From Minisyncoccota bacterium (GTDB taxonomy: Bacteria > Patescibacteriota > Minisyncoccia > Phycocordibacterales > Phycocordibacteraceae), in contig JBAYHQ010000001.1 of the NCBI GenBank assembly GCA_041666065.1, forward strand, positions 1 through 50,586: a DNA stretch of 50,586 bases. Direction: 5' to 3'. Of this stretch, positions 10,685 to 50,586 are shown one piece after another. Every line of letters starts with the position of its first letter. The first letter of the stretch is position 1. The position numbers and the translations under genes are program-made. The notes beneath the pieces are model-generated. The model did no database searches. It was not told where the DNA came from and worked only from the letters and a program-made list of their open reading frames with translations.

Positions 10685-10717
10685 AAAACCGCTCGATAAT
10701 CGAGCGGTTTTCTTTTT
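10685..10717 (+). terminator. intrinsic terminator after rpsI
   Basis: A 12-bp perfect stem, AAAACCGCTCGA/TCGAGCGGTTTT, with loop TAA is followed by a T-run. Confidence 0.8.
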
Positions 10718-10830
10718 GTATCCTCGGACTAGCTTTTCGAAGCAAGCATGCTCCGTCACTCGTCCGCGAGTGTCTGGGGGCCAAGCAGTGATCGAAGCGT
10801 CAGCTATCTAATTCTTCCTGATTATAATAA

Positions 10831-10860
10831 TTAGCACCTTCTGTTCTAGGGGTGTATAGT
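10831..10860 (+). promoter_or_regulatory. candidate promoter, possibly giving a leaderless mRNA
   Basis: TTAGCA (10831-10836), an 18-nt spacer and TATAGT (10855-10860) are present. The ATG at 10868 lies 7 nt after the -10 element, and no SD is present. Confidence 0.3.
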
Positions 10861-10867
10861 TTTGGGT

Positions 10868-11803
10868 ATGTTTTTGGAAACAGAACTAGAACCTCTGAAG
10901 AAAATAGCCAACTCAGAGAGTGCGGCTGTTGTAACCTTTATAGCTCCCGATCGATCAATTCGAGTTACCCCTTCTAGCTACAGCTCCACTTCAATATCAA
11001 CAAACGATGTTTACCGTCTAGAAGAGGCACTTGGAGACAGCGCCGTTCCCGATAAGGCCCTACTTCTACTGCACTCACCGGGTGGAAATTTCTCCTCATC
11101 CTACAACATCGCTCGTTTTCTAAGAAAGAGATTCAAGACCTTACATGTGTTTGTTCCTTATGAAGCCGCGAGCGGAGCTACAATTATGTCTTTGGCAGCA
11201 AATGCTATTACCTTGGGCGATCTGGGCTATCTAACTCCTATTGATCCACAGGTGAGATATAAAGGTGAGTGGGTCTCCAGTTATGGCGTTATAGAGAAAG
11301 TTGCAGACATGGAACGTAAATTTAAAAAACTTGTTCCTGATGAGGTTCCGGTGCCATGGCATCAGATGATAGATCGTCTTGATCTTATTCATTATCGGGA
11401 AATGGAGACTCTGAATTATGAAGCACGAAGTTATGCTGAAGACCTTTTAAAATCCGCGGGCTATTCTCCAGAACAGGCCACAGACATTGCATGGAAGTTA
11501 GCTCGCAATATTTATTCTCACGGGCATTGTTTTGATGCCGATGCCTGTACAAAAATGGGTTTAAAACTCGATGCCTCTGCTAAATCACTTGGATATCTTT
11601 CTGAAATGAAAAAGCTAATCCATTTTGCGAATAAGAAAAATACCGAGATACCGTCACACTATATCGATGTAGTCCTTCCGAAAGTCGGCGTAGTAGTTCT
11701 TACGGAGTCAGTAGATGATTCTCTTGAAAGCAAGGCCGAACTTACATCCAAGGTTGTCAGAACTAAGAAATTGAAAAAATCTAAGGGAGTAAGGCGTCGT
11801 TAG
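10868..11803 (+). CDS. Clp-fold serine proteinase of the SDH (serine dehydrogenase proteinase) family
   Basis: LLLHSPGGNFSSSYNIARFLRKRFKTLHVFVPYEAASGATIMSLAANAITLGDLGYLTPIDPQ matches the HTPGG...AxSGGT...PxDPQ pattern of this ClpP/SppA-related family. The gene lies in an AT-rich region. An alternative TTG start is at 10862. Confidence 0.7.
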   Translation: MFLETELEPLKKIANSESAAVVTFIAPDRSIRVTPSSYSSTSISTNDVYRLEEALGDSAVPDKALLLLHSPGGNFSSSYNIARFLRKRFKTLHVFVPYEAASGATIMSLAANAITLGDLGYLTPIDPQVRYKGEWVSSYGVIEKVADMERKFKKLVPDEVPVPWHQMIDRLDLIHYREMETLNYEARSYAEDLLKSAGYSPEQATDIAWKLARNIYSHGHCFDADACTKMGLKLDASAKSLGYLSEMKKLIHFANKKNTEIPSHYIDVVLPKVGVVVLTESVDDSLESKAELTSKVVRTKKLKKSKGVRRR

Positions 11804-11896
11804 TGTTTTTAAGCCCCTGCAAGAGTAATCCTTGATAAAGGACTACATTATACACTTTCGGAGTACCATTCACGACTATTGTGATAGACTAAGAAC

Positions 11897-12043
11897 ATGG
11901 CAATAAGGACCATGAAAAAGGACAGCGACCTAAATGCTCTTTTGGCTCGTTCAGCTGAGAGTGGTAAATTCTTTGAGAAAGAAGGTTTTACTGATTTGAG
12001 TGATGTAATTAAATACGCCATAAAGAGGAGTGAGGCTAATTAA
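11897..12043 (+). CDS. small hypothetical protein (48 aa), possible antitoxin-like partner
   Basis: Hand-translated as MAIRTMKKDSDLNALLARSAESGKFFEKEGFTDLSDVIKYAIKRSEAN. It ends 5 nt before the next ORF, has no clear SD, and is below the ORF-track size cutoff. Confidence 0.3.
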   Translation: MAIRTMKKDSDLNALLARSAESGKFFEKEGFTDLSDVIKYAIKRSEAN

Positions 12044-12048
12044 GAAAT

Positions 12049-12561
12049 ATGATGATTTGGGCGAATATTTTGCGCAGATTAGATGCGGTGAAATGTCTAA
12101 CGAACCATGTTAGAAGCATCAGAGGTCTAAGTACAAAGGAGAAATCTTCATACTACCGCTCCATCTTAATAATTTTATACAGCATCGTTGAAGGTTTAGT
12201 ATATGAAGTCGTAAAGAAAAATACGACTCCCCCTGATCATGTTTTTGAAAAAATATCTGAGTACACGGATCTTCACAGAATCAACTCATCCGTCCTTGCC
12301 ACTACTTGGGATGTTCTTTTATGTCACAAAAAAAAGATCGATAGAAAAATAAATGATGATGGAGCAACATTCGGACGTTACAATCTTTTTTTACAGCATC
12401 AAGGAGTTATAAATTCAAGGCAATATAAGACATTGGATTGGATTAGAGAAGAAAGAAATAAACTCCATATTCAAGGACTTGCGACTCCCGATATTAATTA
12501 TACTGACGCAAAAGTGAAAAGAACATCTAGGGCAATTAGGTTTCTAGTAAGGAAAGTATAG
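12049..12561 (+). CDS. hypothetical protein (170 aa), weak HEPN-like R-x6-H motif
   Basis: The gene is very AT-rich (hand count: 27% GC for 12301-12360). The product is helical, and the motif IREERNKLHIQG is reminiscent of HEPN Rx4-6H. I cannot assign a family. Confidence 0.5.
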   Translation: MMIWANILRRLDAVKCLTNHVRSIRGLSTKEKSSYYRSILIILYSIVEGLVYEVVKKNTTPPDHVFEKISEYTDLHRINSSVLATTWDVLLCHKKKIDRKINDDGATFGRYNLFLQHQGVINSRQYKTLDWIREERNKLHIQGLATPDINYTDAKVKRTSRAIRFLVRKV

Positions 12562-12632
12562 CCACTGGGCTTTACAAGATTGAATCTCGCTCTAACATTG
12601 CACTTCCTACCCAGAGGCGTACCATTCGGCAT

Positions 12633-12866
12633 ATGAAAAAACTTATTGCTGGTGTTGCTCTCGTGTTCTTCCTGTTTGTTTCTGCCGGTTCAGTTGAAGC
12701 GAAGACCGTAAACGTCCGTGGCTACTACAAACCCTCCACTGGTGCATACGTACAGCCCTCGCACCGCACCTCTCCGAACAACACGCGCATGGACAACTAC
12801 TCCACGAGAGGGAACTACAACCCCTACACCGGCAAGGCTGGTCGTGCGAATCCCTACAGATACTAA
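12633..12866 (+). CDS. small secreted Tyr/Asn/Pro-rich protein
   Basis: A classical signal peptide, MKKLIAGVALVFFLFVSAGSVEA, precedes a 54-aa mature part with repeated NPY/GxY motifs (NYNPYTG, ANPYRY). Confidence 0.55.
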   Translation: MKKLIAGVALVFFLFVSAGSVEAKTVNVRGYYKPSTGAYVQPSHRTSPNNTRMDNYSTRGNYNPYTGKAGRANPYRY

Positions 12867-12885
12867 CTGCAGCATTGAGCCCCGC

Positions 12886-12912
12886 TCACTTGGAAGCTTC
12901 GCTTCCAAGTGA
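12886..12912. repeat. hairpin repeat copy 1 (TCACTTGGAAGC-TTC-GCTTCCAAGTGA)
   Basis: A perfect 12-bp inverted repeat lies in the convergent intergenic region, so it is probably also a terminator. Confidence 0.75.
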
Positions 12913-12919
12913 GTCCCAG

Positions 12920-12961
12920 AATATCCTTATGACTGGACGACCGTCCAAAGATAAGGATATT
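12920..12961. repeat. composite hairpin (AATATCCTTAT...ATAAGGATATT with inner TGGACG/CGTCCA)
   Basis: 11-bp outer arms (12920-12930 and 12951-12961) enclose a 6-bp inner pairing. The element sits between hairpin copies 1 and 2. Confidence 0.6.
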
Positions 12962-12988
12962 TCACTTGGAGGCCGAACCTCCAAGTAA
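12962..12988. repeat. hairpin repeat copy 2 (TCACTTGGAGG-CCGAA-CCTCCAAGTAA)
   Basis: It has the same ACTTGG...CCAAGT outer arms as copy 1, with compensatory changes in the inner stem. Confidence 0.65.
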
Positions 12989-13012
12989 CTGAGTGGATGG
13001 GGATAGTCGGCG

Positions 13013-13597
13013 TTATTCTTTGACCTCTTCAACCTCTGGTGGTCGCACCATTCTCATTTCTCTAAATATCGCTCCACTTGGGAAAGTGAGGCCCGATGCC
13101 ACTTCTTCATCTGTAGGCTTGAAGCCGAGGCGCTCATAGAAAGCGATGGCCGGAGCATTATCCCTGTTGACCGTCAGCACCGTGGACAGTGCTGGGTTGA
13201 AGATGGAGCGTGCTTGATTCCACAGATCTGTTCCCACGTGCCGCCCCTGATACGAGGGTAGTACATAGAGCGCCCCAAGCTCGTTTTGTATCGGAGACGT
13301 CATCGCCCATGCATATCCGATGATTTCCCCGTGCTCTTTTGCTACGAATGCCGCTTCGCCGGATTTTTGTTCCTGCAGTTCTGCGGCCGTCCTCTTGAGC
13401 GATTCTGCAGAGAAAGCTTTCTTGAACGAATCAAAATACCACCCGATATCGTTCGGCGTTATGCCGGAACGTTCGTTTACGTATGTATTGAGCCAAGTCT
13501 CACGCTGAACTTCTCGGAGACCCATGGCGTCAGCACCCGTAGCGCGTTCAATACGAATACGAGGAACATGTTCTTCTGCAGGAGTTCCTTCTTTCAT
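13013..13597 (-). CDS. GNAT family N-acetyltransferase
   Basis: LGALYVLPSYQGRHVGTDLWNQA is the acetyl-CoA motif A (Q/RxxGxG/A), and NAPAIAFYERLGFKP is motif B. Confidence 0.85.
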   Translation of the reverse strand: MKEGTPAEEHVPRIRIERATGADAMGLREVQRETWLNTYVNERSGITPNDIGWYFDSFKKAFSAESLKRTAAELQEQKSGEAAFVAKEHGEIIGYAWAMTSPIQNELGALYVLPSYQGRHVGTDLWNQARSIFNPALSTVLTVNRDNAPAIAFYERLGFKPTDEEVASGLTFPSGAIFREMRMVRPPEVEEVKE

Positions 13598-13616
13598 AAA
13601 TCCATTTTACCGCACT

Positions 13617-38428: not shown

Positions 38429-39370
38429 ATGGATTTCATCAAGGAATTCGGTCAGCTCGGCAAGCACGACGCCGCTATAGCGGGCGGGAAGGGTGCTTCG
38501 CTCGGCGAAATGACGCAGGCGGGGATCCCTGTGCCCCCAGGGTTCGTCATCCTCTCCGGCGCTTTTGAACATTTCCTTGAAGAGACCGGCCTACATGCCG
38601 AGATTGACGCGACCCTGCACACCGTCTCTCCAAGCGAGATGCACACCGTGGAGCATGCTTCGGAGAAGATACAGGCGCTCATACTCGGCGCGAAGATGCC
38701 GGAGGACATCGCGACTGAAATACAGAAGCTCTTCGCGAAGTTAGATGCCGAGTATGTAGCGGTACGCTCAAGCGCGACTGCCGAGGACTCCGCGAGCGCC
38801 GCGTGGGCGGGTCAACTGGACAGTTTCCTCAACACGACCGACGACACGCTCCTCACGAACGTGCAGCGTTGCTGGGCCTCGCTCTTCACCCCGCGCGCTA
38901 TCTTCTACCGATTTGAGAAAGAGCTCCATACGCAGAAGATCTCGGTCGCGGTGGTGGTGCAGAAGATGGTGCAGAGCGAGGTTTCCGGCATCGCCTTCTC
39001 GGTGCATCCGGTGACCGAGGACTACAACCAGCTCATCATTGAAGCGGGCTTCGGCCTCGGCGAGGCTATCGTCTCCGGCTCGGTCACGCCTGACAGCTAC
39101 GTGGTGGAGAAAGAGCCGCGGCGTATCATAGACAAGAACGTCACGTACCAGAGCCGCGCGCTCTGGCGCGCGGAGAACGGCGGCAACGAGTGGCGTGCTC
39201 TCTCCGAGACAGAGGGCACGAAGCCCGCACTCTCCGACGAGCAGGCGCTTGAGCTCTCCGAGATTATCCTGCGCATTGAACGCCACTACGGCTTCCCATG
39301 CGACATTGAGTGGGCGTACGAGGCGGGGACATTTTTCATCACCCAGTCTCGCCCGATCACCACGCTTGCT
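38429..39370 (+). other. domain: PPDK_N-type ATP-grasp nucleotide-binding domain (only copy in the operon)
   Basis: The domain runs from the start to FITQSRPITT, with the canonical PEP synthase / PPDK / rifampin phosphotransferase N-terminal motifs. Confidence 0.8.
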
Positions 39371-42300
39371 CCGCTCGCGGTAAAAGATGAAGCTGAGTTT
39401 ATCTCCCCAGAGCTCGCGCGTTTTCCACGACAGGATTACGAATTCGTAGGCCGGTGGAAAAGCGATTTGTTCACCGGATATTTTTGGAATTATTGGTTTA
39501 GGAAGGAGATGCTCAAGAAACTCGATTTCTCCGTACCTTTTTCGGGTTCGCTCGGATTGAAAGGCGGCAACACTTTTTATCACAAGCAGGTTGTGCAGTG
39601 GGGTTCGGATGAGATGCAGCGAATGCTTGCGGACCACTTAGAGACGCGTTCAAAGAGATTCAGAGACAGTGCCGAAAAAGATTTTGCAGAACTTCTGAAA
39701 AAGGCTGACTCCTTCGCGGAGAGTATGCCAGACCAAAACAATTTCAAGCAAGTCGTTGATGCGTATCAGGACTTCATGCTGTATTTCCTTACGGCCAATC
39801 TTATAAGCCCTCACTTTGATCCGCTGATTGCTGAGAAAGCAGTTGAGGAAGGCGTGCCCGCCGAAGACGTCGTCAGTCTGATCCCGAAATTCCCTGCACA
39901 GATTGAGACTCAGCATGCGGATGCGAGAAGGCTACTCGGTCTTCTGAAGAAGAAATCACTTGACGCATTACTCGGCGTTGATACAGAGAAACTCGTTATT
40001 GCGATTAACACAGATAAAGAGCTCAAGGGTGAATTTGAAAAACATCTGAAAGAGTTCGGCTGGCTGGAACTGTTGAACTTCGTAGGGGCGCCTCTTTCGC
40101 TGGAACGTCTTTTAGGCCAATTGAAAACGGCGTCGGGGGCAGAACAGGCGCACGAGCACGCCGCTCACGCGTACAAACTCTCCGATGAATTCAAGCACCT
40201 GCTCAAGACTGCGGCAGACATAGGTTTCGTACGTCAAGCGGCGGCTGAGACTTCCTCTATATTCCACTACAAGCTCATCTCGTATCTTGAGAAAACTGCG
40301 CAGGCGCTTGGTCTCACGTATCGGGAAATGCTTAACCTCGTCCCTCCTGAAATTGTCCAAGGATTGAGCGGTGCGAAATCGCACGAGGAACTGAAACGAA
40401 CTGCTGAGAAGAGGGCGGGATATAACTGGCTCGTGTACGGAGATATCGCGACAGAGAGCCTCATTGTCATAGACGAGAAAGAGGATGTGGAGAAGATGTG
40501 CTCGCTCATGATCCCCACTGCAGATGAAGGCGCTGATACGCTCGGCGGACAGATCGGGAACAAGGGGAAGGTGCAGGGGAGGGTAAGTGTGATCATGGCG
40601 TCCGACGATTTTCACAAGTTTGTAGAAGGGAATGTGCTCGTCACGACCATGACGACGCCCGACTTCGTCATCCTGATGCAGAAGTCGGTCGCGATTGTGA
40701 CCGACATCGGCGGCATGCTCTCCCACGCCTCCATCGTCTCGCGCGAGCTAGGGAAGCCCTGTGTCATCGGTACGAAGTTCGCCACGCAAGTCCTCCGCGA
40801 CGGTGACCTTGTGGAGGTAGACGCTGACAGCGGGGTGGTGCGCATATTGGAGCGCACAGGGTCGAGCCCTGCTGTGCTCGTCGACCCAGATAAGGAATTG
40901 CTCATTATGAGAGACCGGCCGTCAATGTTGTCTCCTGTGTACTGGAATCAAGTCCTTCAGATTAGCGATGAAGTAAAAGAGATATACGGTGATGTTCTAA
41001 GTACCGAATACACGACTCATTCAAACGGGAGAATGAGCTCGGTAATGATAAAGAATGAATGGAATAGGGTTGGGGATTTCATAGCAAACAAAATAGTAGA
41101 TAGTGAAGAATACTTTAAGAAAATTGTGCGGAAGACGGAAGAATCTAAAAAGCACATTCAGTCTTTTTTAAAAGAAATAGCTGAAGAGAATTTAGAGAAT
41201 CTTAACTTTGACGAGCTGACTAAAAAAGTCGAGACGATTAGGGACCTGTTTTTTGAATACGATGCTGCCAGTGTGTTCGCTTGGTTTGTCGCTGGAGATC
41301 AAATTAAACAGAAGATTGATTCAATTCTCAAGTTATCAAAAGAAGATTTGGATATACTCTCTCTTCCCAAAGAAAGAACCTTTGCCTCTCAAATGGAGCA
41401 AGAGGTTTTAGAGGTGGCTGTTGCTACTTCAAAAGATATTGAAAAAGAAGCTGAGAAGTTAGAAAAACGATTCTATTGGATTCTTTTTGGTTATGACGGT
41501 CCAACGGTGTGTGATAAAAATTATTTCATTGAGCAGATACAGATGCATCGAAAAGAAATGTCTGAGACAAGAAAAAGACTTGCTGAAATCAAGAGTACTG
41601 AAAATGATATTAGAGACAAAAGAGAAATAATTATAAAAAGGGAGAGCTTCACAGAAGCCGACGAACGTCTCATAGATATTTTGCGCCGCATTACTACTTG
41701 GACCGACGAAAGAAAGATGTTGGATTTCCAACTCTTCTACCATCACAATAGAGTCCTGACTTCTATAGGCTCAATGTTTGGAGCCTCTATTACGCAGATG
41801 AAGTATCTTTTCACCCACGAATTAAGAGGCCTTAAGGAAAAACACAAAGAGCTACTGATTGAAGCCGATAAGCGTATACAGAATGATTTTATTGTCATAA
41901 GTCATGGGGACACCTTAAGGATAGCCTCCGATGAGGAGAAGGCTCTCTTCAAGAAAGTGATAGATGCCCAACTCAAACATACCGAGGTAAAAGGCAACGT
42001 GGCTAGTGCCGGCCCCCAGAAGACATATCGTGCTGTAGCGAGAGTATTGCTGTCTCCAGCCGAGTGCTCAAAGGTCAAGGGTGGAGAAATAATGGTGGCA
42101 ACAATGACTACGCCGGACTATGTTCCTGCCATGAGAAATGCTCTTGGTTTCATAACTGATGAGGGTGGAGTCACGTGTCATGCTGCTATTGTTGGGCGCG
42201 AAATGAATAAACCATGCATTATAGGGACCAAGGTAGCCACCAAAATCCTAAAGGATGGCGATTTCGTGGAGATGGACGTTAATAACGGTGTGGTGCGTAT

Positions 42301-43414
42301 ATTGGAGCGGACAGGGGATGCGGCGATAAAGAAAAGTCTGGTGTGGAATCCTCAAGCGGCGAATAGCACTGTCATCGAGCAGATAGAAAGCACTGATTGG
42401 CGTCAGGACTGGTCAGACGTATACAGCACCATTGAGGCGTCCTTAGACATAGATTCGTATTTCGGCGTATTTGAGAAAGTCTGTGGGACAAGCTTCTCCA
42501 GCATAATGCTTATCTTTGACGGGGACACGACGGTCTGCTGGAGCCCCACTAACGAGTCTGAGGAGCTTGGGACGCATCTGGTACAGAAAATGCTTGATCC
42601 TGTATTCCTCAAGCAGTGGGTCGCCGCATACAAGTCTCACGCTGACACTCTTACTGAGTTCGTTAAGTTGCCGTTTGACGAGTTTCTCAAACGTCTCCCT
42701 GAATATAAAGAGAGGTACCCTTACCTCGCCCCGCACGTCATCGGTACGAAAATAGCTTTTAATCTATTGCCGATGGGGCACGAGGATGTCGCTGCGGAGC
42801 TTGAGGCGGCGCGTCGGTACACCGAGATGTTCTACAAGAATTCCACGCACGTCATGAACGAGTTGTGCGCGCACATCGCGAAAGAGAAGGGATACAGTTT
42901 GAAATCGATACGTGCCTTGTCGGTAGATGAGCTCTGTGAGTACGGTCAGACTGGCGTGCTTCCTGAGGAGAGTGTGTTGGAGGCACGGTCTGCTATAAAG
43001 GGCATCTATCTAGAGAAGGGGCGGCAGCATACGCTATCTGCCGACGATGTCTCCGACATACAGAAATCATGGCAGACGAGCGTGGAAGGCGACACTTTGA
43101 AAGGTGCGAGTGCTTATCCGGGCATCGTAAGGGGCGTATGCCGTGTGGTCATAGACTATCGTACTGCATCAGTAGATGACGGGGAGGTGCTTGTAGCGAC
43201 CATGACCGACCCGCGATTTGTTCCGTTCATGAAGAAGGCGGCGGCCATAGTGACTGATGGCGGTGGTATGCTCTCGCACGCGGCCATCGTCGCGCGCGAA
43301 CTCAAAGTGCCGTGCGTCGTGGGGACGAAGCTCGCGACACAAGTCCTCCATGACGGCGACCTCGTGGAGGTAGACGCTGACAGCGGGGTGGTGCGCATTC
43401 TGGAAAAAAAATAA
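38429..43414 (+). CDS. 1661-aa tri-modular PpsA/RPH-like phosphotransferase: PPDK_N ATP-grasp domain + three (helical domain + phosphohistidine swivel) modules, no PEP/pyruvate TIM barrel
   Basis: The N-terminus has GGKGASLGEM, VAVRSSATAEDSASAAWAGQLDSFLN and FITQSRPIT (PPDK_N). Three swivel domains carry TTMTTPDF..IVTDIGGMLSHASIVSRELGKPCV, ATMTTPDY..ITDEGGVTCHAAIVGREMNKPCI and ATMTDPRF..IVTDGGGMLSHAAIVARELKVPCV. Confidence 0.85.
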   Translation: MDFIKEFGQLGKHDAAIAGGKGASLGEMTQAGIPVPPGFVILSGAFEHFLEETGLHAEIDATLHTVSPSEMHTVEHASEKIQALILGAKMPEDIATEIQKLFAKLDAEYVAVRSSATAEDSASAAWAGQLDSFLNTTDDTLLTNVQRCWASLFTPRAIFYRFEKELHTQKISVAVVVQKMVQSEVSGIAFSVHPVTEDYNQLIIEAGFGLGEAIVSGSVTPDSYVVEKEPRRIIDKNVTYQSRALWRAENGGNEWRALSETEGTKPALSDEQALELSEIILRIERHYGFPCDIEWAYEAGTFFITQSRPITTLAPLAVKDEAEFISPELARFPRQDYEFVGRWKSDLFTGYFWNYWFRKEMLKKLDFSVPFSGSLGLKGGNTFYHKQVVQWGSDEMQRMLADHLETRSKRFRDSAEKDFAELLKKADSFAESMPDQNNFKQVVDAYQDFMLYFLTANLISPHFDPLIAEKAVEEGVPAEDVVSLIPKFPAQIETQHADARRLLGLLKKKSLDALLGVDTEKLVIAINTDKELKGEFEKHLKEFGWLELLNFVGAPLSLERLLGQLKTASGAEQAHEHAAHAYKLSDEFKHLLKTAADIGFVRQAAAETSSIFHYKLISYLEKTAQALGLTYREMLNLVPPEIVQGLSGAKSHEELKRTAEKRAGYNWLVYGDIATESLIVIDEKEDVEKMCSLMIPTADEGADTLGGQIGNKGKVQGRVSVIMASDDFHKFVEGNVLVTTMTTPDFVILMQKSVAIVTDIGGMLSHASIVSRELGKPCVIGTKFATQVLRDGDLVEVDADSGVVRILERTGSSPAVLVDPDKELLIMRDRPSMLSPVYWNQVLQISDEVKEIYGDVLSTEYTTHSNGRMSSVMIKNEWNRVGDFIANKIVDSEEYFKKIVRKTEESKKHIQSFLKEIAEENLENLNFDELTKKVETIRDLFFEYDAASVFAWFVAGDQIKQKIDSILKLSKEDLDILSLPKERTFASQMEQEVLEVAVATSKDIEKEAEKLEKRFYWILFGYDGPTVCDKNYFIEQIQMHRKEMSETRKRLAEIKSTENDIRDKREIIIKRESFTEADERLIDILRRITTWTDERKMLDFQLFYHHNRVLTSIGSMFGASITQMKYLFTHELRGLKEKHKELLIEADKRIQNDFIVISHGDTLRIASDEEKALFKKVIDAQLKHTEVKGNVASAGPQKTYRAVARVLLSPAECSKVKGGEIMVATMTTPDYVPAMRNALGFITDEGGVTCHAAIVGREMNKPCIIGTKVATKILKDGDFVEMDVNNGVVRILERTGDAAIKKSLVWNPQAANSTVIEQIESTDWRQDWSDVYSTIEASLDIDSYFGVFEKVCGTSFSSIMLIFDGDTTVCWSPTNESEELGTHLVQKMLDPVFLKQWVAAYKSHADTLTEFVKLPFDEFLKRLPEYKERYPYLAPHVIGTKIAFNLLPMGHEDVAAELEAARRYTEMFYKNSTHVMNELCAHIAKEKGYSLKSIRALSVDELCEYGQTGVLPEESVLEARSAIKGIYLEKGRQHTLSADDVSDIQKSWQTSVEGDTLKGASAYPGIVRGVCRVVIDYRTASVDDGEVLVATMTDPRFVPFMKKAAAIVTDGGGMLSHAAIVARELKVPCVVGTKLATQVLHDGDLVEVDADSGVVRILEKK
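40541..40861 (+). other. domain: swivel (PEP-utilizers mobile) domain 1, His codon 40724-40726
   Basis: LGGQIGNKGKVQGRVSVI...GGMLSHASIV...DGDLVEVDADSGVVRILERTG. Confidence 0.85.
41987..42316 (+). other. domain: swivel domain 2, His codon 42179-42181
   Basis: VKGNVASAGPQKTYRAVARVL...GGVTCHAAIV...DGDFVEMDVNNGVVRILERTG, encoded in AT-rich DNA. Confidence 0.85.
43097..43411 (+). other. domain: swivel domain 3, His codon 43277-43279
   Basis: LKGASAYPGIVRGVCRVV...GGMLSHAAIV...DGDLVEVDADSGVVRILEKK. Confidence 0.85.
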
Positions 43415-44701
43415 ATGGAAAAACTCTCTTGGCTTTCTTCAAAAGAAGGTGCTGATGTGCGTACTATCATCACTCACTTCTGGGACACGCTCTCCACTAA
43501 AGCGTATCCAGTAACTAAGGGTACGATGCGCGTCCCTATCTCTCTTGAGCCTTTCACTCTCTCGCGCGAAGAATATGAGAACCTTAATAAAAATCTGCTT
43601 CTGGTTATTTCGGCGGCACGGAAACTTGCCGAACACTATTTTACCGACCAAGACTTGCAGACGATATTTAGCCTCAATGCAGCCGAAGTTGGTTTGATTG
43701 AAGCCTCAAAGGACGAACCGTTTGTGGGAATCGTGAGAGCCGACCTCTTCTATGGCGCTCAACCGAAGTTGGTGGAACTTAACACCGATTTCCCCGATGG
43801 GTTCTTCATGCATGATGTGACCGCGCAGACTATTCAAGATCTCCTGCCGGCACACTACGAGACTAACTCAAACGCCGCGCTATTTCAGAGACTGCTTGAA
43901 TCAGCAGGAGTTAGTAAGCAAGACCATATTTTCATTGGCTATGATAAAGGCAGGAAGTTCATAGACGAATTCGCCCTAACGCAACGTACGCTAGAAGGGC
44001 AGGGGTGGAAGCGTGTAAGTTACGGCGCTATTGAAGATTTGGAATATCGAGATGGTGTCTTTTATTGGAACGATGAACCGGTACAAGTCATCCGGCGTGG
44101 CGTGGAGACTTCAAAAATGCGCGCGAATACAGAACTCTTGGCGAATATCACGCGGGCACAGCGAGATTCTGGACTTAAGGTAATCAACAACTTCAAGATG
44201 CGCCTGCTTGGGCACAAGTCCCTTCTGGCGGCACTCTGGGACACGCGATTTGAAAAATATATGAGCGACGAGGAACTCGGAGCGGTTAAGTCTCTCGTCC
44301 CCGAAACATTGAAGTTGGAAACGGCAGGTTTGGAGAAAATATCCATAGAAAAAGATGGGTGGGTACTAAAGCCCTCCGACCTTACTGAGGGCGAAGGTGT
44401 CGTCATAGGCTCTGCATGCAGCGCCACCGAGTGGTCGGCGAGTATTGAAGAAGCACTCAAGAATCCGCGAGCGTGGCTTCTGCAACGCAAGGCAGATATT
44501 CCTAAAGACACGTTCTCCCTGTTCAACGCTGAGACCGGCGAGACCCACTCGTCGGAGATGAGCTACGATCTAGATCCGCATATCGTCCTGTTTAGAGACC
44601 ACGCCGAAATGGGCAATATGCTCGTGCGATTCTCCCCGTCGGAGATACTGAACGTCATGAAAGGCGGCGGTTTAACCTACGCTTTCGTAGGAGTAGAATA
44701 A
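43415..44701 (+). CDS. ATP-grasp ligase of the glutathionylspermidine-synthase-like / circularly permuted type-2 ATP-grasp group
   Basis: VGIVRADLFYGAQPKLVELNTDFPDG resembles the R-x-D...K-L-x-E-x-N-x-D-x-P signature of GspS-like amidoligases. GWVLKPSDLTEGEGVVIG is an ATP-grasp strand-loop motif. The ATG directly follows the TAA of the giant ORF, in the same frame. Confidence 0.6.
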   Translation: MEKLSWLSSKEGADVRTIITHFWDTLSTKAYPVTKGTMRVPISLEPFTLSREEYENLNKNLLLVISAARKLAEHYFTDQDLQTIFSLNAAEVGLIEASKDEPFVGIVRADLFYGAQPKLVELNTDFPDGFFMHDVTAQTIQDLLPAHYETNSNAALFQRLLESAGVSKQDHIFIGYDKGRKFIDEFALTQRTLEGQGWKRVSYGAIEDLEYRDGVFYWNDEPVQVIRRGVETSKMRANTELLANITRAQRDSGLKVINNFKMRLLGHKSLLAALWDTRFEKYMSDEELGAVKSLVPETLKLETAGLEKISIEKDGWVLKPSDLTEGEGVVIGSACSATEWSASIEEALKNPRAWLLQRKADIPKDTFSLFNAETGETHSSEMSYDLDPHIVLFRDHAEMGNMLVRFSPSEILNVMKGGGLTYAFVGVE

Positions 44702-44707
44702 ACATCT

Positions 44708-45835
44708 ATGGCTGACAAAGAGATTCTTTCTGTTGATTGGCAGCTCTGGATACAGCGGAAAGGGCTAGATATCTTCAGCGTCAGCCTATTCCATATAGAA
44801 GAAGAGGGGCTTCTGCGCGCTGTCATCGGTGGCGGCACTTCAAAGCAGCTCTGTGTCTGCGAGGGCGATGATTATCTGTTTATTCGCTCAACAAGCGACT
44901 TTGCGCAGATGTATAACGACATCGCGGCGTTCATCCGTAAGCAGCCCCTCGGATATTTTGAGAAAGTATTTGAGAAAGCTCGCACGATGCCTGAGGTGAC
45001 CCGCGATCTCATCAAGCGAGTTTCTGGCTATTCCGACACTGAAGTGGTAGAGAACTTCCAAAACATCACTGACGATATCATGGCCGTCATTCTCTATAAC
45101 ACCTCTATTCCGTATTTCTTGCTGTCAACGCTGGAGACGCACGCTGATATACCGCCGGCTCACTATGACCTTCTCATGCGAGAGTCTGAGAAATTGCGCG
45201 CGACATCGCTCTTCCATGACCTCATGACCTCTGTGTACGGGAGGATATTTGATGTGTTATCGCGCCGTTTCGGAGTGGAGAGGGCCCATGCCTCATTCCT
45301 CTCGGTAGAAGAAATGGCCGACATGGTAAACGGGAAAGCCGCCGCGCCAAGCGCGAATGAGCTCGTCGCACGAGAGAAGTGTGTCGTGTGGATGGACAAA
45401 ACGCAGAACAGGACGCTCTTCTCCTACGACGAAGGGCTTCGCGAAGAAATAAAAGAACGGGTGTGGAATCAGCTTAAGCCAAGAGTGGACGCTAGTGGAG
45501 CATCGCTGCTGAAAGGGAATACCGCCTTCGGCGGCAAGGTGTCGGGGGCTGTGAAGATCGTCACCTCTGCCGCCACCATGGCCAAGATGGCCAGAGGAGA
45601 CATCCTCGTCGCCCACACTACGAACCCAAGCTTGATGCAGGCTATCTCGCTCGCAGGTGCAATAGTGACCGATGAGGGCGGTATCGGCTGTCATGCCGCT
45701 ATCGTCGCCCGCGAGCTGAAAGTACCGTGCATCATCGGGACACGAATCGCGACTCAAGTCCTCCACGACGGCGATATGGTTGAGGTAGATGCCAACAACG
45801 GAGTGGTTAGGATAATAAAGGGAATTGTTACATAA
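44708..45835 (+). CDS. stand-alone module: about 267-aa helical domain + C-terminal phosphohistidine swivel domain
   Basis: The C-terminus reads LLKGNTAFGGKVSGAVKIV...AHTTNPSLM...IVTDEGGIGCHAAIVARELKVPCIIGT...DGDMVEVDANNGVVRII. The swivel spans about 45509-45826 and the His codon is 45692-45694. Confidence 0.8.
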   Translation: MADKEILSVDWQLWIQRKGLDIFSVSLFHIEEEGLLRAVIGGGTSKQLCVCEGDDYLFIRSTSDFAQMYNDIAAFIRKQPLGYFEKVFEKARTMPEVTRDLIKRVSGYSDTEVVENFQNITDDIMAVILYNTSIPYFLLSTLETHADIPPAHYDLLMRESEKLRATSLFHDLMTSVYGRIFDVLSRRFGVERAHASFLSVEEMADMVNGKAAAPSANELVAREKCVVWMDKTQNRTLFSYDEGLREEIKERVWNQLKPRVDASGASLLKGNTAFGGKVSGAVKIVTSAATMAKMARGDILVAHTTNPSLMQAISLAGAIVTDEGGIGCHAAIVARELKVPCIIGTRIATQVLHDGDMVEVDANNGVVRIIKGIVT

Positions 45836-46662
45836 TGAGGAGCATGGGAAAATTTGAGAAATTGGCATCTGCCGGATACTTAGATAAAACTCGCGAACAA
45901 AGCGCCCGTAGGAGCATAAGTTCTGAGGAGTACCAAGATTTGGAAAAGAAGATGTCTTCGCGTCTTACCGACCAACCATGGGAGAAAGAGGGGAGTATGA
46001 GATTCTCTATTAAAGGGGAGGGCGAAGACGCTCTCCCCACCTCATTTTCTATAGAATACGACTCAGAGAGCACCCCTGAGTTAGAAAAATATCGCCACCA
46101 AATACGCGGATGGACGCCGGATGACGACATGGACGACATGGTGACCATAAATATGGGTACGTTTAGGAGGATTAAGGACTTAAGGATTGAGCATGCCGGA
46201 AATAAATTTGATATGCGAGCGGCAGTTAGGAATCTGGACGTTTATACCTACATCGGGAACGAACCTCGCAAGCAAGTCATAATCAAAGGCCAACATGGTG
46301 TGTATGGTCTTCGTTCTCGCCACGCAGAGATTATCTTCACTACATTTGACCCGACCTCTATCTTCGGACTTATGGTATTACTCCATGAAATAGGGCATGA
46401 AGTAAAAGAGTCAGCCTACACAATAAAAGAGAGCGGCTTTAAGAAGCAAAGCGGCGCAAAGATTGAAAATGGTGAGGCTACGACTGTCGCCGAAAAAGTA
46501 AGCCTGATTGAAAACGAAAGATCAGCTGATGCTTTCGCATTACACACACTGTACCGCCTGATGGGCAAAAATGTTGATATGACCAAGATAAATAAAATAT
46601 TCCATTCTGGGCAGTCTGGAGCTCAGGGGAGACTAAAGTGGAGTCCTGATGCAAAGCTGTGA
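45835..46662 (+). CDS. hypothetical HExxH protein (putative zinc-dependent hydrolase/peptidase)
   Basis: LLHEIGHEV (HEIGH at 46384-46398) is followed by ENERSADAF, which could supply a Glu ligand. GC is lower (hand count 43% for 46141-46200). The start overlaps the previous stop (TAATG). Confidence 0.5.
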   Translation: MRSMGKFEKLASAGYLDKTREQSARRSISSEEYQDLEKKMSSRLTDQPWEKEGSMRFSIKGEGEDALPTSFSIEYDSESTPELEKYRHQIRGWTPDDDMDDMVTINMGTFRRIKDLRIEHAGNKFDMRAAVRNLDVYTYIGNEPRKQVIIKGQHGVYGLRSRHAEIIFTTFDPTSIFGLMVLLHEIGHEVKESAYTIKESGFKKQSGAKIENGEATTVAEKVSLIENERSADAFALHTLYRLMGKNVDMTKINKIFHSGQSGAQGRLKWSPDAKL

Positions 46663-46684
46663 TGGCAAACTAGTTAAGTAATGT

Positions 46685-47704
46685 ATGGAGAAAATCGTAT
46701 TGCAGAAGAATTACTCGCGAGACTTCACGCTCATATTGGAACAGTTGTGGGTGGGCGCTTTCAAGCGGAACATCAAAGCCGAGTACGGTTTTGAAACGCC
46801 CTATCCACCATACGTGGTGCTACATGTGACAGACGAAAATCTGGAGATATGGGAGCACGAGAAGGCTATTGGCTCTTTTCAAGATTGGCTACTGGAGAAG
46901 AATACTGTGAGCACCGATTTCCTGCGGCAGATAGTACGCGAGTACGAAGACTTGATGGCGGTAATAGAGGGCCACTGGAAGAGGGGCGGCACGAAAGATC
47001 TTGAGACTATCGCGGAGTATCTAGCAGCCTCGGAAAAAGCGGTAACACTCTTCTGTATCTGGTACTACTCGTGTATAGACGAACGGACGCCGGAGACGGC
47101 GCAAGCGATCGCTCGTCCGCTCCGCGAGAAGGACGAGTTCTTCGCGAAGAACGACAAGCACATCAAGGACTGTGTCGTGGCTCTCGGTGGGAAGCGGGAA
47201 CTGGCAAATCTTATCCTGCTCTCAGAATTCCCGAACATTCCGAGTGAGGAGACGCTCCGAGCCCGCACGAGTGGCGTCGTGGTCGTAGACGCCGACGAGG
47301 TATTCTTCTCTCCGCTTCCACAGTTCGCTGCGGAGCACCCAGAATACGTATTTGAAGATTTACAGCCGATCACCGAGACTCCCAAAGAGCTTTCAGGAAG
47401 TATCGCCTACAAGGGCTCGGTCACGGGGAGGGTACGGGTTGTGAAGAACGTGCGCGCGATGGATGGCGTCCACGATGGCGACATCATCGTGTCGCCCATG
47501 ACCACACCAGATTTCATAGCGGCGATGCGGAGAGCGGCAGCATTTGTGACCGATGAAGGCGGCATTATGTGCCACGCTGCCATCGTCGCGCGGGAGATGA
47601 AGAAGCCCTGCATCACGGGTACAAAGTTCGCCACGCAAGTCCTCCGCGACGGCGATCTTGTGGAGGTGGATGCCGATAGGGGAGTCGTACGGATATTGAA
47701 ATAG
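46685..47704 (+). CDS. stand-alone module: about 235-aa helical domain + C-terminal swivel domain
   Basis: The C-terminus reads LSGSIAYKGSVTGRVRVV...SPMTTPDFI...FVTDEGGIMCHAAIVAREMKKPCITGT...DGDLVEVDADRGVVRIL. The His codon is 47573-47575. Confidence 0.8.
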   Translation: MEKIVLQKNYSRDFTLILEQLWVGAFKRNIKAEYGFETPYPPYVVLHVTDENLEIWEHEKAIGSFQDWLLEKNTVSTDFLRQIVREYEDLMAVIEGHWKRGGTKDLETIAEYLAASEKAVTLFCIWYYSCIDERTPETAQAIARPLREKDEFFAKNDKHIKDCVVALGGKRELANLILLSEFPNIPSEETLRARTSGVVVVDADEVFFSPLPQFAAEHPEYVFEDLQPITETPKELSGSIAYKGSVTGRVRVVKNVRAMDGVHDGDIIVSPMTTPDFIAAMRRAAAFVTDEGGIMCHAAIVAREMKKPCITGTKFATQVLRDGDLVEVDADRGVVRILK

Positions 47705-47706
47705 GT

Positions 47707-48750
47707 ATGGACAAGGCCCCACGAAGTCTTGATTTGTTCGGGTACAGAGACTTCACGCTGGCGACGGCCCAGATAGGGACTGAGGCCGAGTCGCTCGGAC
47801 TGTATCTTGGTGACTTCAAACTCGCGCAGCCGTATTTCGTAGTGGAGAGGAGAGAAGGGAAGTCAGGGTACTTCATTGATACTGCGCAAGTGAATCGGCA
47901 GAAAGAAATTATTCTGGAGAAAATCGAAGCTGATAAAGGCTTTGTAGACACGCTCATAGACACCTCGGCGGGATATTACGACGAGCTTGAGTCGGCGCTC
48001 ACGGAAGGACGGCCGCTCTCGCGAGCTGAGTTCTCAGGTCTCGTAGAGCCCTTCATTAACGCATGGAGCTGGATGGCAGGGTGGTGGTGGGCGACAGAGG
48101 CGATGGAGGAGAGGAATCTACACCCTGAACTGGTGGAGAAAATAATGGTCTTCAGAAGAAAGACCGAAAAAATCATCCCGCAAATTGACCACCTCACCCG
48201 CGTGACCGCAGAGACTCTTTACCCAGAAATCACGGAGTACGCAGATGCACTTACAGTAGAAGAAATAATAAACGGGAAGATACCTTCGGAGAGCGAATTG
48301 CGGGAAAGGATGCACCACCATCTCGTCGTGAACAACAAGGTCTTTACCGGCGAGGAGATAGACAAGGTTCTGAGCGACATGGGAATAATCCTGACCGTGC
48401 CAGAAGTGACTCATTTCAAAGCGGCGGACGGTACGCTCACAGGACAGACAGCTTACAAGGGGAAGTACACCGGCAAGGTATCTATCGTGTTTACCAGAGA
48501 AGATGCGGGCGATTTCAAAGCAGGCGACGTGCTCGTAGCGAGCTCCACGACGCCCGACTTCATACACGCTATCAAGAAGGCGGGCGCTATGGTCGCCGAC
48601 GAAGGTGGTATCATCTCGCACGCAGCCATCACAAGCCGCGAACTGAAAATCCCGTGCATCATCGGCACAAAAATAGCGACTCAAGTCCTCCGTAATGGAG
48701 ATGTTGTTGAAGTGGACGCAGACAATGGTATCGTTAGGATACTTTCATAA
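47707..48750 (+). CDS. stand-alone module: about 243-aa helical domain + C-terminal swivel domain
   Basis: The C-terminus reads LTGQTAYKGKYTGKVSIV...ASSTTPDFI...MVADEGGIISHAAITSRELKIPCIIGT...NGDVVEVDADNGIVRIL. The His codon is 48619-48621. Confidence 0.8.
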   Translation: MDKAPRSLDLFGYRDFTLATAQIGTEAESLGLYLGDFKLAQPYFVVERREGKSGYFIDTAQVNRQKEIILEKIEADKGFVDTLIDTSAGYYDELESALTEGRPLSRAEFSGLVEPFINAWSWMAGWWWATEAMEERNLHPELVEKIMVFRRKTEKIIPQIDHLTRVTAETLYPEITEYADALTVEEIINGKIPSESELRERMHHHLVVNNKVFTGEEIDKVLSDMGIILTVPEVTHFKAADGTLTGQTAYKGKYTGKVSIVFTREDAGDFKAGDVLVASSTTPDFIHAIKKAGAMVADEGGIISHAAITSRELKIPCIIGTKIATQVLRNGDVVEVDADNGIVRILS

Positions 48751-48751
48751 C

Positions 48752-49108
48752 ATGTACACCATACGGATTATTGAAGGGGAAATAACCAAGCCAGAGCTTC
48801 GCCGTATGGCCGAAGAGATATTTGGCGACATGGTGAAAGGTACGGCTGATATTACAAAAGATACGATGGCGCTCGGAGGCGAGATGCACATAGACAGTAA
48901 CCAACTACTGCTCGACACGGGTTCGGAGCAACAGAATGTCTGGGGTTTTAACATTTATCCAGATCAGCCAGTAGAGAGCTGGATAGAATACAATTCCTTG
49001 GTTAACATAAAACCGGTTTTGGGGAATAGGTCACCAGATATTCTAGATGCCAGTGTCAGAGAAAAAATAAAAGACATCGTCCTAAAACACGTCTCGTTAC
49101 ATGAATAA
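48752..49108 (+). CDS. DUF5674-like small protein
   Basis: MYTIRIIEGEITKPELRRMAEEIFGDMVKGTADITKDTMALGGEMHIDSNQLLLDTGSEQQNVWGFNIYP...NIKPVLGNRS matches my recollection of the DUF5674 pattern (FGDMVKAVVDI...ELHAD...LWGINLYP). The family name needs HMM confirmation. Confidence 0.55.
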   Translation: MYTIRIIEGEITKPELRRMAEEIFGDMVKGTADITKDTMALGGEMHIDSNQLLLDTGSEQQNVWGFNIYPDQPVESWIEYNSLVNIKPVLGNRSPDILDASVREKIKDIVLKHVSLHE

Positions 49109-49430
49109 TATACACACCGAGACAATCAACACTCGATGGAGTCAGTTCACACTGGCGCAACAGATGGCTAGCGTGGCAAGCGAGTTCGCCAGACTCTCTT
49201 CTTGGTGCGCGAAAGGGAACGAGACCCTTGCAAAGAGTTCGGCCGCGAGGACTATAGACCTCGTAGACGCAATGCTGCGTGATAGCCGATGGAAGGGCCG
49301 AGAACTTGAGTTCAGGAATCTCAAGGTGGCGGTTGAGTCTATGGTCGCGCCGGAACATTTTGGAACAGTTGGTGGGGAGGCGGTACAGCGTAGCCTCGCG
49401 CCTTTTTTCGCCCTCGCAGCCCTATCGTAA
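49101..49430 (+). CDS. small helical hypothetical protein
   Basis: The 109-aa ORF overlaps the previous gene by 8 nt and the next by 1 nt (TAATG). I recognise no family. Confidence 0.5.
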   Translation: MNNIHTETINTRWSQFTLAQQMASVASEFARLSSWCAKGNETLAKSSAARTIDLVDAMLRDSRWKGRELEFRNLKVAVESMVAPEHFGTVGGEAVQRSLAPFFALAALS

Positions 49431-50586
49431 TGGCATATAAACTCATAGAGAAGTTCAAGAAGATCATCGGGAGCGACCCTGTCGTGGTTATCCACGCCTC
49501 TATCTCGCCCCTCTTTATGAATGTCGCATGGAGTCGCGGCGAACACCCGATACCCTCGCTCTCCTTAGTGAGAGGCCGCGACAATTACATCTCTTTCAAC
49601 GAGAGGCGTTACTTCGCGCTCGCGACGGATATGTTTCGTCGGTATTACGAAGGGAAGGTAAGTATTGAAGAACTTGAAGACAGGTACCGCGAATACGAGA
49701 GGCATGCCCAAGAGATGTACGACGAAGTGACCCGCACAGACCTCGGAGCACTATCAGACGATGAGCTGAAGGCGTATATGGACAGGATTGACGGTCTCTA
49801 CACCGAGCTTCTAGACACCATTTATATAGAGACCATAGACTACGACAAGATACTTTCCGTCATCGGTGCTGAACACCAACAAGAACTGGATAAGGTATGG
49901 GAGAAGGCGACACAGCCGACCTTCGTGTCTTTTGAGGGACGGTACCTGCGCAACATGACCGATCTTGTGTCCTCAGGTCAGGAGGACACTGTCCGAGAGG
50001 CACGGTTTATGTTTACCGACTATTCATGGACAAAAAGTAGTGATGAGATCATAGCCGCTCTTGCTGCAGTACGAGACAGCTTAGACGAAAAGAGACGAGA
50101 AGTAGAACGGCTCTATGCTGAAGCCAGGGCCAAGGAAGAGGTGTTCTCGGCGTGGGAGGACACGCTCAGCCCTCGTGCGCGGCGTATCGCAGCCTATACG
50201 CAGATGGTGATGTGGATGCGCGATGCGAGGAAAGACCCTATCGCGCAGATGCTCGCGGTGCTCGTAGAAATCGCGACTATCATGACCAAGCGCGCCGACA
50301 TAGAGCTCCGCCACGCTCCATTTATCCAATTCCACGAGTGCGTGAAGGGCGTGGAGCACCTCAAGCAGATGAAAGCGCATATTGAGGCGCGAGAGGAGGG
50401 GAGCGTCTATCTCGCGCACCCTGACAAGACGTACGAGATAGAGCATCGCGATTTTGAAGAAGCCTTGGCCGAGTTCAACGAATGGACGATGCCGCAGGCA
50501 CACGAGTCGTCCGAACTCCGAGGTCAGATCGCCTGTCGTGGTCAAGTGCGCGGCATCGTACGGGTAGTATCTGACCCCCATGACGA
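49430..50586 (+). CDS. stand-alone module (partial, runs off window): at least 362-aa helical domain + start of a swivel domain
   Basis: It is not in the ORF track because it is open-ended. Hand translation gives MAYKLIEKFKKIIGSDPVVVIHASISPLF...VMWMRDARKDPIAQM...ELRGQIACRGQVRGIVRVVSDPHD with no stop. The last 24 aa match the N-terminal strand of the other swivel domains. Confidence 0.75.
   Translation, partial: MAYKLIEKFKKIIGSDPVVVIHASISPLFMNVAWSRGEHPIPSLSLVRGRDNYISFNERRYFALATDMFRRYYEGKVSIEELEDRYREYERHAQEMYDEVTRTDLGALSDDELKAYMDRIDGLYTELLDTIYIETIDYDKILSVIGAEHQQELDKVWEKATQPTFVSFEGRYLRNMTDLVSSGQEDTVREARFMFTDYSWTKSSDEIIAALAAVRDSLDEKRREVERLYAEARAKEEVFSAWEDTLSPRARRIAAYTQMVMWMRDARKDPIAQMLAVLVEIATIMTKRADIELRHAPFIQFHECVKGVEHLKQMKAHIEAREEGSVYLAHPDKTYEIEHRDFEEALAEFNEWTMPQAHESSELRGQIACRGQVRGIVRVVSDPHD

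Follow-up and report, generated by a model that had tools for sequence, protein, structure and literature searches.

How are several phosphohistidine swivel domains served when their locus codes for only one domain able to charge them? The question is raised by a gene cluster in a 50,586-nucleotide stretch of DNA from a Minisyncoccota bacterium (GenBank assembly GCA_041666065.1, contig JBAYHQ010000001.1, positions 1 to 50,586), referred to below as the window. The cluster (38429-50586, ~12 kb, all genes on the forward strand) codes for a 1661-residue protein, G1661, in which a PPDK_N ATP-grasp domain (the charger) is followed by three modules, each made of a pre-swivel, or acceptor, domain and a swivel of the PEP-utilizers family (PEP, phosphoenolpyruvate). 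It also codes for smaller proteins that each consist of one such module. In every characterised swivel dikinase known to us, a single swivel and a single acceptor site go with each ATP-binding domain. We consider it likely that the locus encodes a multi-headed (hub-and-spoke) dikinase of the rifampin phosphotransferase (RPH) type, devoid of a TIM barrel, whose charger serves the fused and the free modules. A preliminary description, made from the sequence alone, had proposed that one charger serves many carriers and acceptors. This core proposal is supported by structure matches, by a survey of 82 related loci and by the precedent of two-component dikinases, but its extension, in which the modules feed a co-encoded ATP-grasp ligase, is not.

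Organization of the locus

G1661 (38429-43414) begins with the charger (38429-39394, residues 1-322), which matches Pfam PF01326 over residues 17-320 (E 2.7e-96) and which, in PDB sequence searches, matches PEP synthase and RPH in their ATP-grasp domains. The three modules follow in tandem: acceptor domain 1 (39395-40543, residues 323-705) and swivel 1 (40544-40858, residues 706-810), acceptor domain 2 (40859-41998, residues 811-1190) and swivel 2 (41999-42313, residues 1191-1295), acceptor domain 3 (42314-43099, residues 1296-1557) and swivel 3 (43100-43411, residues 1558-1661). The first two acceptor domains are of a long type (cluster C0) and the third is of a short type (cluster C3). The swivels were recognized by Pfam, by a hidden Markov model (HMM) and by their motif. 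Stand-alone modules are encoded by the genes of S375 (44708-45835; acceptor domain at residues 1-268; cluster C5), S339 (46685-47704; acceptor domain at residues 1-236) and S347 (47707-48750; acceptor domain at residues 1-244; cluster C1), each of which ends in one PEP-utilizers match (E 5e-26 to 8e-23). The seventh swivel belongs to S469, a stand-alone module of the long type whose gene (49430-50586) runs past the window edge. At full length the protein, found on the source contig and in loci L001 and L002, has 469 residues, with the PEP-utilizers match at residues 390-460 (E 5e-26) and the histidine at position 424.

These seven swivels are those listed in the preliminary description, which had also placed correctly six predicted phospho-acceptor histidines, at codons 40724 (His766), 42179 (His1251) and 43277 (His1617) of G1661, 45692 (His329 of S375), 47573 (His297 of S339) and 48619 (His305 of S347). 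The histidine of the GG..[SC]HA motif is intact in all seven copies. The claims of a single PPDK_N domain and of a missing PEP/pyruvate TIM barrel hold as well: a six-frame HMM scan of the window found one PPDK_N and no further swivel, and PEP-utilizers_C (PF02896) had no match at E <= 0.01 in any product. According to Pfam, the stand-alone open reading frames (ORFs) carry neither PEP-utilizers_C nor an ATP-binding domain. Just past the window edge a public contig holds an eighth module gene, coding for at least 293 residues and truncated at the beginning of a swivel. The organism has at least eight modules per one PPDK_N, three of them fused and five separate (four in the window and one beyond).

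The number of genes needs to be corrected. Ten co-directional genes had been announced in the interval 38429-50586, which holds nine ORFs; candidates for the tenth are the gene of an M23 peptidase 18 nt upstream and the module gene past the window edge. The spacing stated for them, -8 to +22 nt, agrees with the gaps between successive ORFs (0, +6, -1, +22, +2, +1, -8 and -1 nt). The window is part of a metagenomic contig of 325 kb (JGI 3300037810), close to one of its ends. The genes upstream of the cluster have housekeeping functions (MraY, FtsW, MurG, GluRS, M23 peptidase, aminoacyl-tRNA synthetases, DnaK/DnaJ), and the closest relatives are Candidatus Kaiserbacteria and Paceibacterota. Promoter and terminator scans gave nothing above chance, antisense ORFs had no family matches and PADLOC found no match to any defence system.

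The swivels are 41-61% identical to one another in protein sequence and 62-75% identical in DNA over 212 nt. Two other assemblies carry identical genes, that of S347 being identical on three independent assemblies. An assembly artefact of repeated swivels is ruled out by this level of DNA identity together with the agreement of the three assemblies, and decaying paralogues by the intact histidine motifs and the keeping of module types across phyla. The GC content at third codon positions (GC3) varies along G1661 in a mosaic fashion: 0.77 in PPDK_N, 0.56 in module 1, 0.81 in swivel 1, 0.41 in module 2, 0.48 in swivel 2, 0.63 in module 3 and 0.65 in swivel 3. Housekeeping genes nearby have values of 0.68-0.76, which the charger resembles, and module 2 with its swivel looks like a cassette acquired from a donor of lower GC content.

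The acceptor domains

The division of the pre-swivel domains into two size classes, made in the preliminary description, is borne out by their measured lengths (383, 380 and 363 residues versus 262, 268, 236 and 244 residues). The W[TM][DR][EA]RK-type motif ascribed to the long class is found as such only in module 2 (WTDERK). S469 has WMRDARK, one residue more than the pattern, and module 1 has VRQAAAE at the position where members of its cluster carry W.DERK-type motifs (80-sequence alignment, module 2 not included).

Compared pairwise by BLASTP, the pre-swivel domains reached E 0.02 at best, and their global identity is 19-28%, versus the much higher values of the swivels given above. A search with G1661 returned 2558 homologous proteins at E <= 1e-10, the best 120 of which were analysed, and 374 pre-swivel segments from these were clustered into types. 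Modules 1 and 2 belong to a long type of ~380 residues, S469 to a second long type of ~370 residues, and S339 and S347 to a short type of ~240 residues; module 3, S375 and the product of the eighth gene each form a separate type. Profile-profile comparison (hhalign) links the types, mostly with 90-99.7% probability. Cluster C3, that of module 3, is linked to C0, C1, C2 and C5 at 97-99%, and the short forms can be aligned with the long ones at both ends. Because the types are connected in this way, the pre-swivel domains are, as judged from their profiles, one divergent superfamily with two size classes. Their homology, on which the preliminary description relied, is thus detected with family profiles and not by pairwise BLASTP.

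Structure prediction relates this superfamily to one known fold. The AlphaFold2 model of S339 (mean predicted local distance difference test score, pLDDT, 92.9) has as its top Foldseek matches in the PDB the RPH of Listeria, RPH-Lm (E 7e-11, 268-277 aligned columns), and the swivel accounts for only ~103 of these columns. The model of acceptor domain 1 alone (pLDDT 92.1) gave six top matches that are all RPH-Lm (probability 0.99-1.0, query template-modelling score (TM) 0.41-0.50, 360-418 columns), the seventh match having a probability of 0.15. The models thus show, at the level of a distant similarity, an RPH-like fold of the rifampin (RIF)-binding-domain kind in the acceptor domains. A helix motif with basic and acidic residues is conserved ~100 residues before the swivel, in the forms W.DERK and Y.RQ.GAE. 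The catalytic residues Arg666-Glu667-Lys670 of RPH are found at a similar distance from its swivel (PMC4844700), and the two sets of residues may be equivalent.

Relation to known swivel dikinases

The mechanism of RPH has been described (PMC4844700). RPH-Lm (PDB 5FBS, 5FBT, 5FBU, 5HV1; PMC4844700) displays the same order of domains as the locus, namely ATP-grasp, helical acceptor-binding domain and C-terminal swivel with its histidine, without a TIM barrel. It is the best structural match of the locus proteins and, for the isolated acceptor domain, the only one. The PPDK_N domain of the locus aligns to RPH over residues 3-318 (E 1e-86), while the acceptor domains share only ~12% identity with it. 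In RPH the ATP-grasp domain comes with a single acceptor domain and a single swivel; at the locus there are three such pairs in cis and at least five in trans. No evidence was found for rifamycin, the substrate of RPH, as a substrate at the locus. G1661 scores 465 bits against a cut-off of 999 with the NCBIfam RPH model NF041857 and 340 bits against 1700 with NF000283. A rifampin resistance gene is ruled out by these scores, far under the equivalog cut-offs, and by the different architecture.

The prodiginine-condensing enzymes PigC, HapC and RedH likewise combine PPDK_N, a central substrate domain and a C-terminal swivel without a TIM barrel. They have a single module, and in them activation is coupled to condensation, whereas the locus has no conserved partner of that sort; G1661 reaches 438-469 bits with their NCBIfam models, far under the cut-offs of 1300-1350. 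PEP synthase and PPDK share with the locus the ATP-grasp and swivel domains and the histidine motif. They differ by their PEP/pyruvate TIM barrel, absent from the locus, and by the position of the swivel, which is central in these enzymes and C-terminal to a helical domain in the locus. Note that G1661 passes the NCBIfam model NF005057 (641.5 bits versus a cut-off of 598) only through the summing of PPDK_N and three swivels, with a best stretch at profile positions 5-339 of 798 and the C-terminal half of the model unmatched, and stays under the cut-off of TIGR01418 (605.5 versus 739.75 bits). The pass is an artefact of the repeated swivels, and a likely source of systematic misannotation. A true PEP synthase or PPDK is ruled out by the absent TIM barrel.

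Enzyme I of the phosphotransferase system (PTS) has a swivel phosphohistidine that shuttles between remote sites as would those of the locus, and only this region matches. Enzyme I takes its phosphate from PEP by way of a TIM barrel and hands it to the protein HPr; the locus has no barrel, and no HPr-like gene recurs nearby. Glucan water dikinase (GWD) is also a multi-domain dikinase with substrate modules other than the PEP barrel, but it has one swivel and carbohydrate-binding modules. Neither GWD nor Enzyme I has several swivels per charger.

The closest precedent for separate modules is provided by two-component dikinases. HpeHI, CreHI and the phenylphosphate synthase PpsAB, which act on small molecules, each consist of an ATP-grasp protein and of a second protein, with a RIF-binding-like domain and a swivel, that is charged in trans at its swivel histidine and then passes the phosphate to the substrate (PMC12167813), an organization also met in the ~20 CPR (candidate phyla radiation) and DPANN loci with a stand-alone PPDK_N described below. 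HpeI is the ATP-grasp subunit and HpeH carries the RIF-binding-like and swivel domains; they form no stable complex, a transient one being inferred by the authors, and a mutant of the histidine is inactive (PMC12167813). S375, S339, S347, S469 and the product of the eighth gene resemble these swivel subunits in being composed of acceptor domain and swivel without an ATP-binding domain. NCBIfam PRK08296 models match only the swivel of the locus proteins. The two-component enzymes are 1:1 pairs with H subunits of ~600 residues, engaged in aromatic catabolism in free-living bacteria, whereas at the locus one charger, itself fused to three modules, faces eight or more, the free ones having 340-470 residues. 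The preliminary description knew of no described system with the organization of the locus. This has to be qualified for trans-acting 1:1 pairs, which are characterised, and stands for the multi-module form: no description of multi-swivel dikinases or of a multi-module CPR/DPANN family was found in the literature searched, which left out subscription journals. The locus shares the defining domains of RPH and of two-component dikinases, departs from their 1:1 stoichiometry, and the multi-module arrangement appears to be the new part.

A family of probable multi-module dikinases in CPR bacteria and DPANN archaea

The best 120 of the 2558 homologues (975-2707 residues) come from Patescibacteria and DPANN archaea. 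The HMM detects in them 2, 3, 4 and 5 swivels in 32, 56, 23 and 10 cases, respectively. Their precomputed Pfam lists contain PPDK_N, PEP-utilizers and a few marginal matches to Epimerase_2 and to AcnX-type swivels, and no TIM barrel. Multi-swivel homologues are already present in databases by the hundred, labelled as PEP synthase/PPDK or as rifampicin phosphotransferase; a survey of the CPR resistome reports rph genes in CPR (PMC8651080).

GTDB species representatives scanned with the PPDK_N domain yielded 147 relatives, the best 80 of which were used, and the survey of gene neighbourhoods covers 82 loci. Module counts in these loci are lower bounds, since contigs of metagenome-assembled genomes are often truncated, and taxon labels are those of the database records. 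The best 80 of the 147 relatives are 62-86% identical and come from both bacteria and archaea: Paceibacterota, Kaiser-, Moran- and Uhrbacteria, records labelled Saccharibacteria, Microgenomates and Peribacteria, Nanoarchaeia and Woesearchaeota. Wherever the start of the system is preserved, one single gene of the locus codes for a PPDK_N domain, and 0-7 swivels were detected on it. The architectures range from a stand-alone PPDK_N of 313-330 residues with free modules, through RPH-like single units and single units accompanied by five or six free modules, to giants, the largest having 3181 residues and seven swivels. A stand-alone PPDK_N is found in ~20 loci, usually with one or more free modules on the same contig. 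The window, with eight modules, stands at the top of the distribution of module number.

Fine clustering divides 197 modules into 77 types, with only 8 duplicates within a locus. Across the 82 loci each module type is found fused to the charger, fused downstream and free. The S375 type is fused in P0037 and the S339 type in P0002, P0007 and P0013. The census shows modules that are interchangeable between the fused and free states and whose types, as defined by clustering, are almost always non-redundant within a locus. Their non-redundancy points to different specificities rather than to gene dosage.

The PPDK_N domains of the window bacterium and of DPANN archaea (L040, L051, L062, L066) are 68-72% identical. 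Universal proteins are usually far below this identity between bacteria and archaea. The high value points to transfer between the domains of life and to strong constraint. In another CPR genome a reverse transcriptase-trypsin fusion and a serine recombinase (L006:3821-6716) adjoin a solitary giant with four swivels, a hint that some multi-swivel genes lie in mobile regions.

Proposed charging of the free modules

Since the same module types occur fused to the charger and split from it, the free modules can be assigned to the PPDK_N protein as their partner, a Rosetta-stone argument that supports joint work of the two. Where the PPDK_N is encoded on its own, no module could be charged except in trans. 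Conservation is strong in the swivels and the charger and the pockets evolve fast, as would suit many swivels that dock at a common interface on one ATP site.

The stand-alone modules might instead act without any ATP-grasp domain, moving phosphate between small molecules or taking it from PEP-like donors by means of their own swivel histidine, so that the PPDK_N would serve the three fused modules only. HpeH alone was indeed able to move phosphate from 4-phosphoacetophenone to acetovanillone (PMC12167813), and the stand-alone modules of the locus have no ATP-binding domain in Pfam. Free modules were collected and counted here only beside a PPDK_N gene, a procedure that does not exclude their existence elsewhere. 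An exhaustive profile search found the long-type domain in 1084 clusters at 50% identity; most of these are free modules of ~470 residues, which may lie beside a PPDK_N gene or away from one. Against action without a charger stand three points: the same types are fused to it in other genomes, the loci in which a stand-alone PPDK_N is accompanied by nothing but free modules make sense only with charging in trans, and conservation is far higher in the swivels than in the acceptor domains, which is what a shared docking partner would lead one to expect. We regard charger-free modules as quite improbable.

In the hub-and-spoke dikinase that we favour, the ATP-grasp domain would bind ATP and pass its beta-phosphate to the swivel histidine of a module. 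Fused modules would be charged in cis and free ones in trans during transient contacts like those of HpeHI, CreHI and PpsAB. The swivel would then swing back to its own acceptor domain and phosphorylate a module-specific substrate, the net reaction being ATP + X + H2O -> AMP + Pi + X-P, with an X that differs for each of the eight modules. The role, which is the weakest step of the proposal, would likely be the phosphorylation of several host- or environment-derived compounds for their capture or inactivation.

The same machinery could in principle run backwards, with phosphorylated compounds of host origin charging the swivels and the ATP-grasp domain making ATP from AMP and Pi, a reaction for which some anaerobes use PPDK. 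Both PPDK and PEP synthase can run in either direction, CPR and DPANN organisms are fermentative and short of ATP-generating routes, and one charger shared by many donor modules would suit such a task. Ordinary phosphate esters, however, lie below PEP in group-transfer potential, the PEP-binding barrel is missing, and the phosphatases encoded next to related loci (see below) would waste the donors. All characterised relatives without TIM barrel known to us run in the ATP-consuming direction. Energy gain by reverse running is the explanation to which we give least credit.

Genes interspersed between the modules

Four genes of the cluster code for proteins other than dikinase modules. L428 (43415-44701), encoded between G1661 and S375 with gaps of 0-6 nt, is a probable GSP-synthetase-like, circularly permuted ATP-grasp amide ligase. 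Its Pfam matches are under the cut-off, but its family profile matches the amide ligase Cp1B (PDB 9CJN, E 3e-5). The family has 46 members in CPR and DPANN. M275 (45835-46662) carries a HEIGHE (HExxH) motif and is an orphan: it has no Pfam or NCBIfam match and no homologue but itself among 5.8 billion clustered proteins, and the GC content of its gene is 0.45. Searches of PDB sequences with L428 alone and M275 alone found nothing. The DUF5674 protein D118 (48752-49108; Pfam PF18924, E 9e-33) has two candidate starts, an ATG at 48695 that overlaps the S347 gene by 56 nt and an ATG at 48752, 1 nt past the S347 stop, and its length is 118, 127 or 137 residues depending on the gene caller. U109 (49101-49430), of 109 residues, has no match in Pfam or NCBIfam.

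The preliminary description had suggested that the modules feed the ligase, and a fuller version of this idea would have them activate substrates for both L428 and the HExxH protein M275 in a small biosynthetic or peptide-modification pathway. The tight position of the ligase gene, the Cp1B match of its profile and a Kaiserbacteria relative (L088: M23, L428, giant, S339-like module, LMWPc) that keeps it beside dikinase genes speak in its favour. PigC-type relatives, moreover, activate their substrate for condensation. L088 is the only other locus where L428 is syntenic with a dikinase. None of the other 80 related loci contains a homologue of L428, M275, D118 or U109, the batteries of Kaiserbacteria and archaea do without all four genes, and relatives of L428 stand without a dikinase nearby in other genomes (L089, L090). 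Feeding of the ligase is unsupported because L428 is absent from the other 80 loci and stands alone in two genomes. A pathway built around L428 and M275 is therefore very improbable. The four proteins are, as judged from their distribution, passengers and not conserved partners.

Elsewhere in the window, at 10500-13600, there is an island of low GC content (35-50% versus ~57% elsewhere) that may be acquired DNA. It codes for an SDH-type ClpP-like serine protease (10862-11803), a GNAT acetyltransferase (13013-13597, reverse strand) and two ORFs without family match.

Phosphatases and DNA-binding modules at related loci

Genes of phosphatase families are the recurrent direct neighbours of the related loci. 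A low-molecular-weight protein tyrosine phosphatase (LMWPc) is encoded in 12 loci, in 11 of them 28-89 nt from the core, and 13 loci have a fusion of His_Phos_1 with an N-formylglutamate-amidohydrolase domain (FGase), separated by 0-45 nt and in most cases sharing the strand; some neighbours are other genes of the His_Phos_1-like kind. Counted at dikinase loci only, a phosphatase-family gene lies within 5 kb in 40 of the 82 (for example L013:12427-14397, L029:16943-17539, L053:9203-9874, L088:10560-11099). The immediate adjacency is hard to attribute to chance. These phosphatases may hydrolyse the products of the dikinase, stripping the phosphate again, or may reset phospho-swivels. An archaeal locus (L007:20774-24255, GCA_043810775.1) codes for two proteins of 553 and 575 residues composed of a MerR/HTH_17 DNA-binding domain, an acceptor domain and a swivel, a hint that some modules act as transcription factors or come under the control of phosphorylation.

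Both observations could be accommodated by a regulatory phosphorelay in which the ATP-grasp domain loads the swivels, the pre-swivel domains are ligand sensors or partner binders, the phosphorylation state of each module governs a downstream process (transcription or enzyme activity, for instance) and dedicated phosphohistidine phosphatases reset the system, as in PTS, PTS-Ntr and SixA. SixA is a member of His_Phos_1 that dephosphorylates phosphohistidine. The LMWPc and His_Phos_1+FGase genes directly adjoin the core, with the frequency given above, and two archaeal modules are fused to DNA-binding domains. The pre-swivel fold, on the other hand, matches only the small-molecule-binding domain of RPH. 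Matches to the N-terminal half of Enzyme I (EIN) are structurally poor (root-mean-square deviation ~20 Å, target TM ~0.3), and no HPr-like or receiver partner recurs in the neighbourhoods. The 77 module types with their fast-evolving pockets resemble substrate diversification, and all characterised TIM-barrel-less relatives that we know of phosphorylate or activate small molecules. A phosphorelay is unlikely on these grounds, though it deserves more weight than the other alternatives discussed here.

Several points weigh against a hub-and-spoke dikinase acting on small molecules. The proposal infers that free modules are charged in trans, in which direction the reaction runs and what the substrates are, including their small-molecule nature. 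In structure, acceptor domain 1 taken alone resembles RPH only moderately (Foldseek E 3e-3 to 9e-2, with the TM and identity values given above), the sequence profile of acceptor domain 1 found no match among PDB sequences, RPH included, and some pairs of acceptor types are weakly linked by hhalign (7-65% probability). A second PPDK_N could be sought in only 50 kb of the 325-kb contig. No phosphatase is visible in the window, whose contig ends just after the modules. Phosphatases beside the core in half of the loci suit a regulatory phosphorelay as well as a metabolic kinase, and the archaeal modules fused to MerR/HTH_17 suit both equally.

Implications for CPR and DPANN biology

If the hub-and-spoke reading is true, one charger for three fused and five free modules, with up to seven fused modules in relatives, would be a new design of multi-substrate kinase. 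It raises the question of how several swivels take turns at one ATP site. The family is one of the few large ones common to ultra-small bacteria and archaea at 62-86% identity, and it is linked to phosphatases. A wider proposal, which we hold tentatively and regard as doubtful in its entirety, is that CPR and DPANN share, by transfer between domains of life, one highly conserved charger with a variable set of up to eight or more modules, which are exchanged as cassettes and readily fused or split. Each module would be directed at a different host metabolite or toxin, and the phosphatases would close a cycle of capture and release, or of detoxification and reset. The identities of the substrates could reveal what these symbionts take from their hosts or what they defend themselves against there. 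Were this interdomain hub-and-spoke reading true, it would amount to a previously unrecognised metabolic strategy of ultra-small symbionts.

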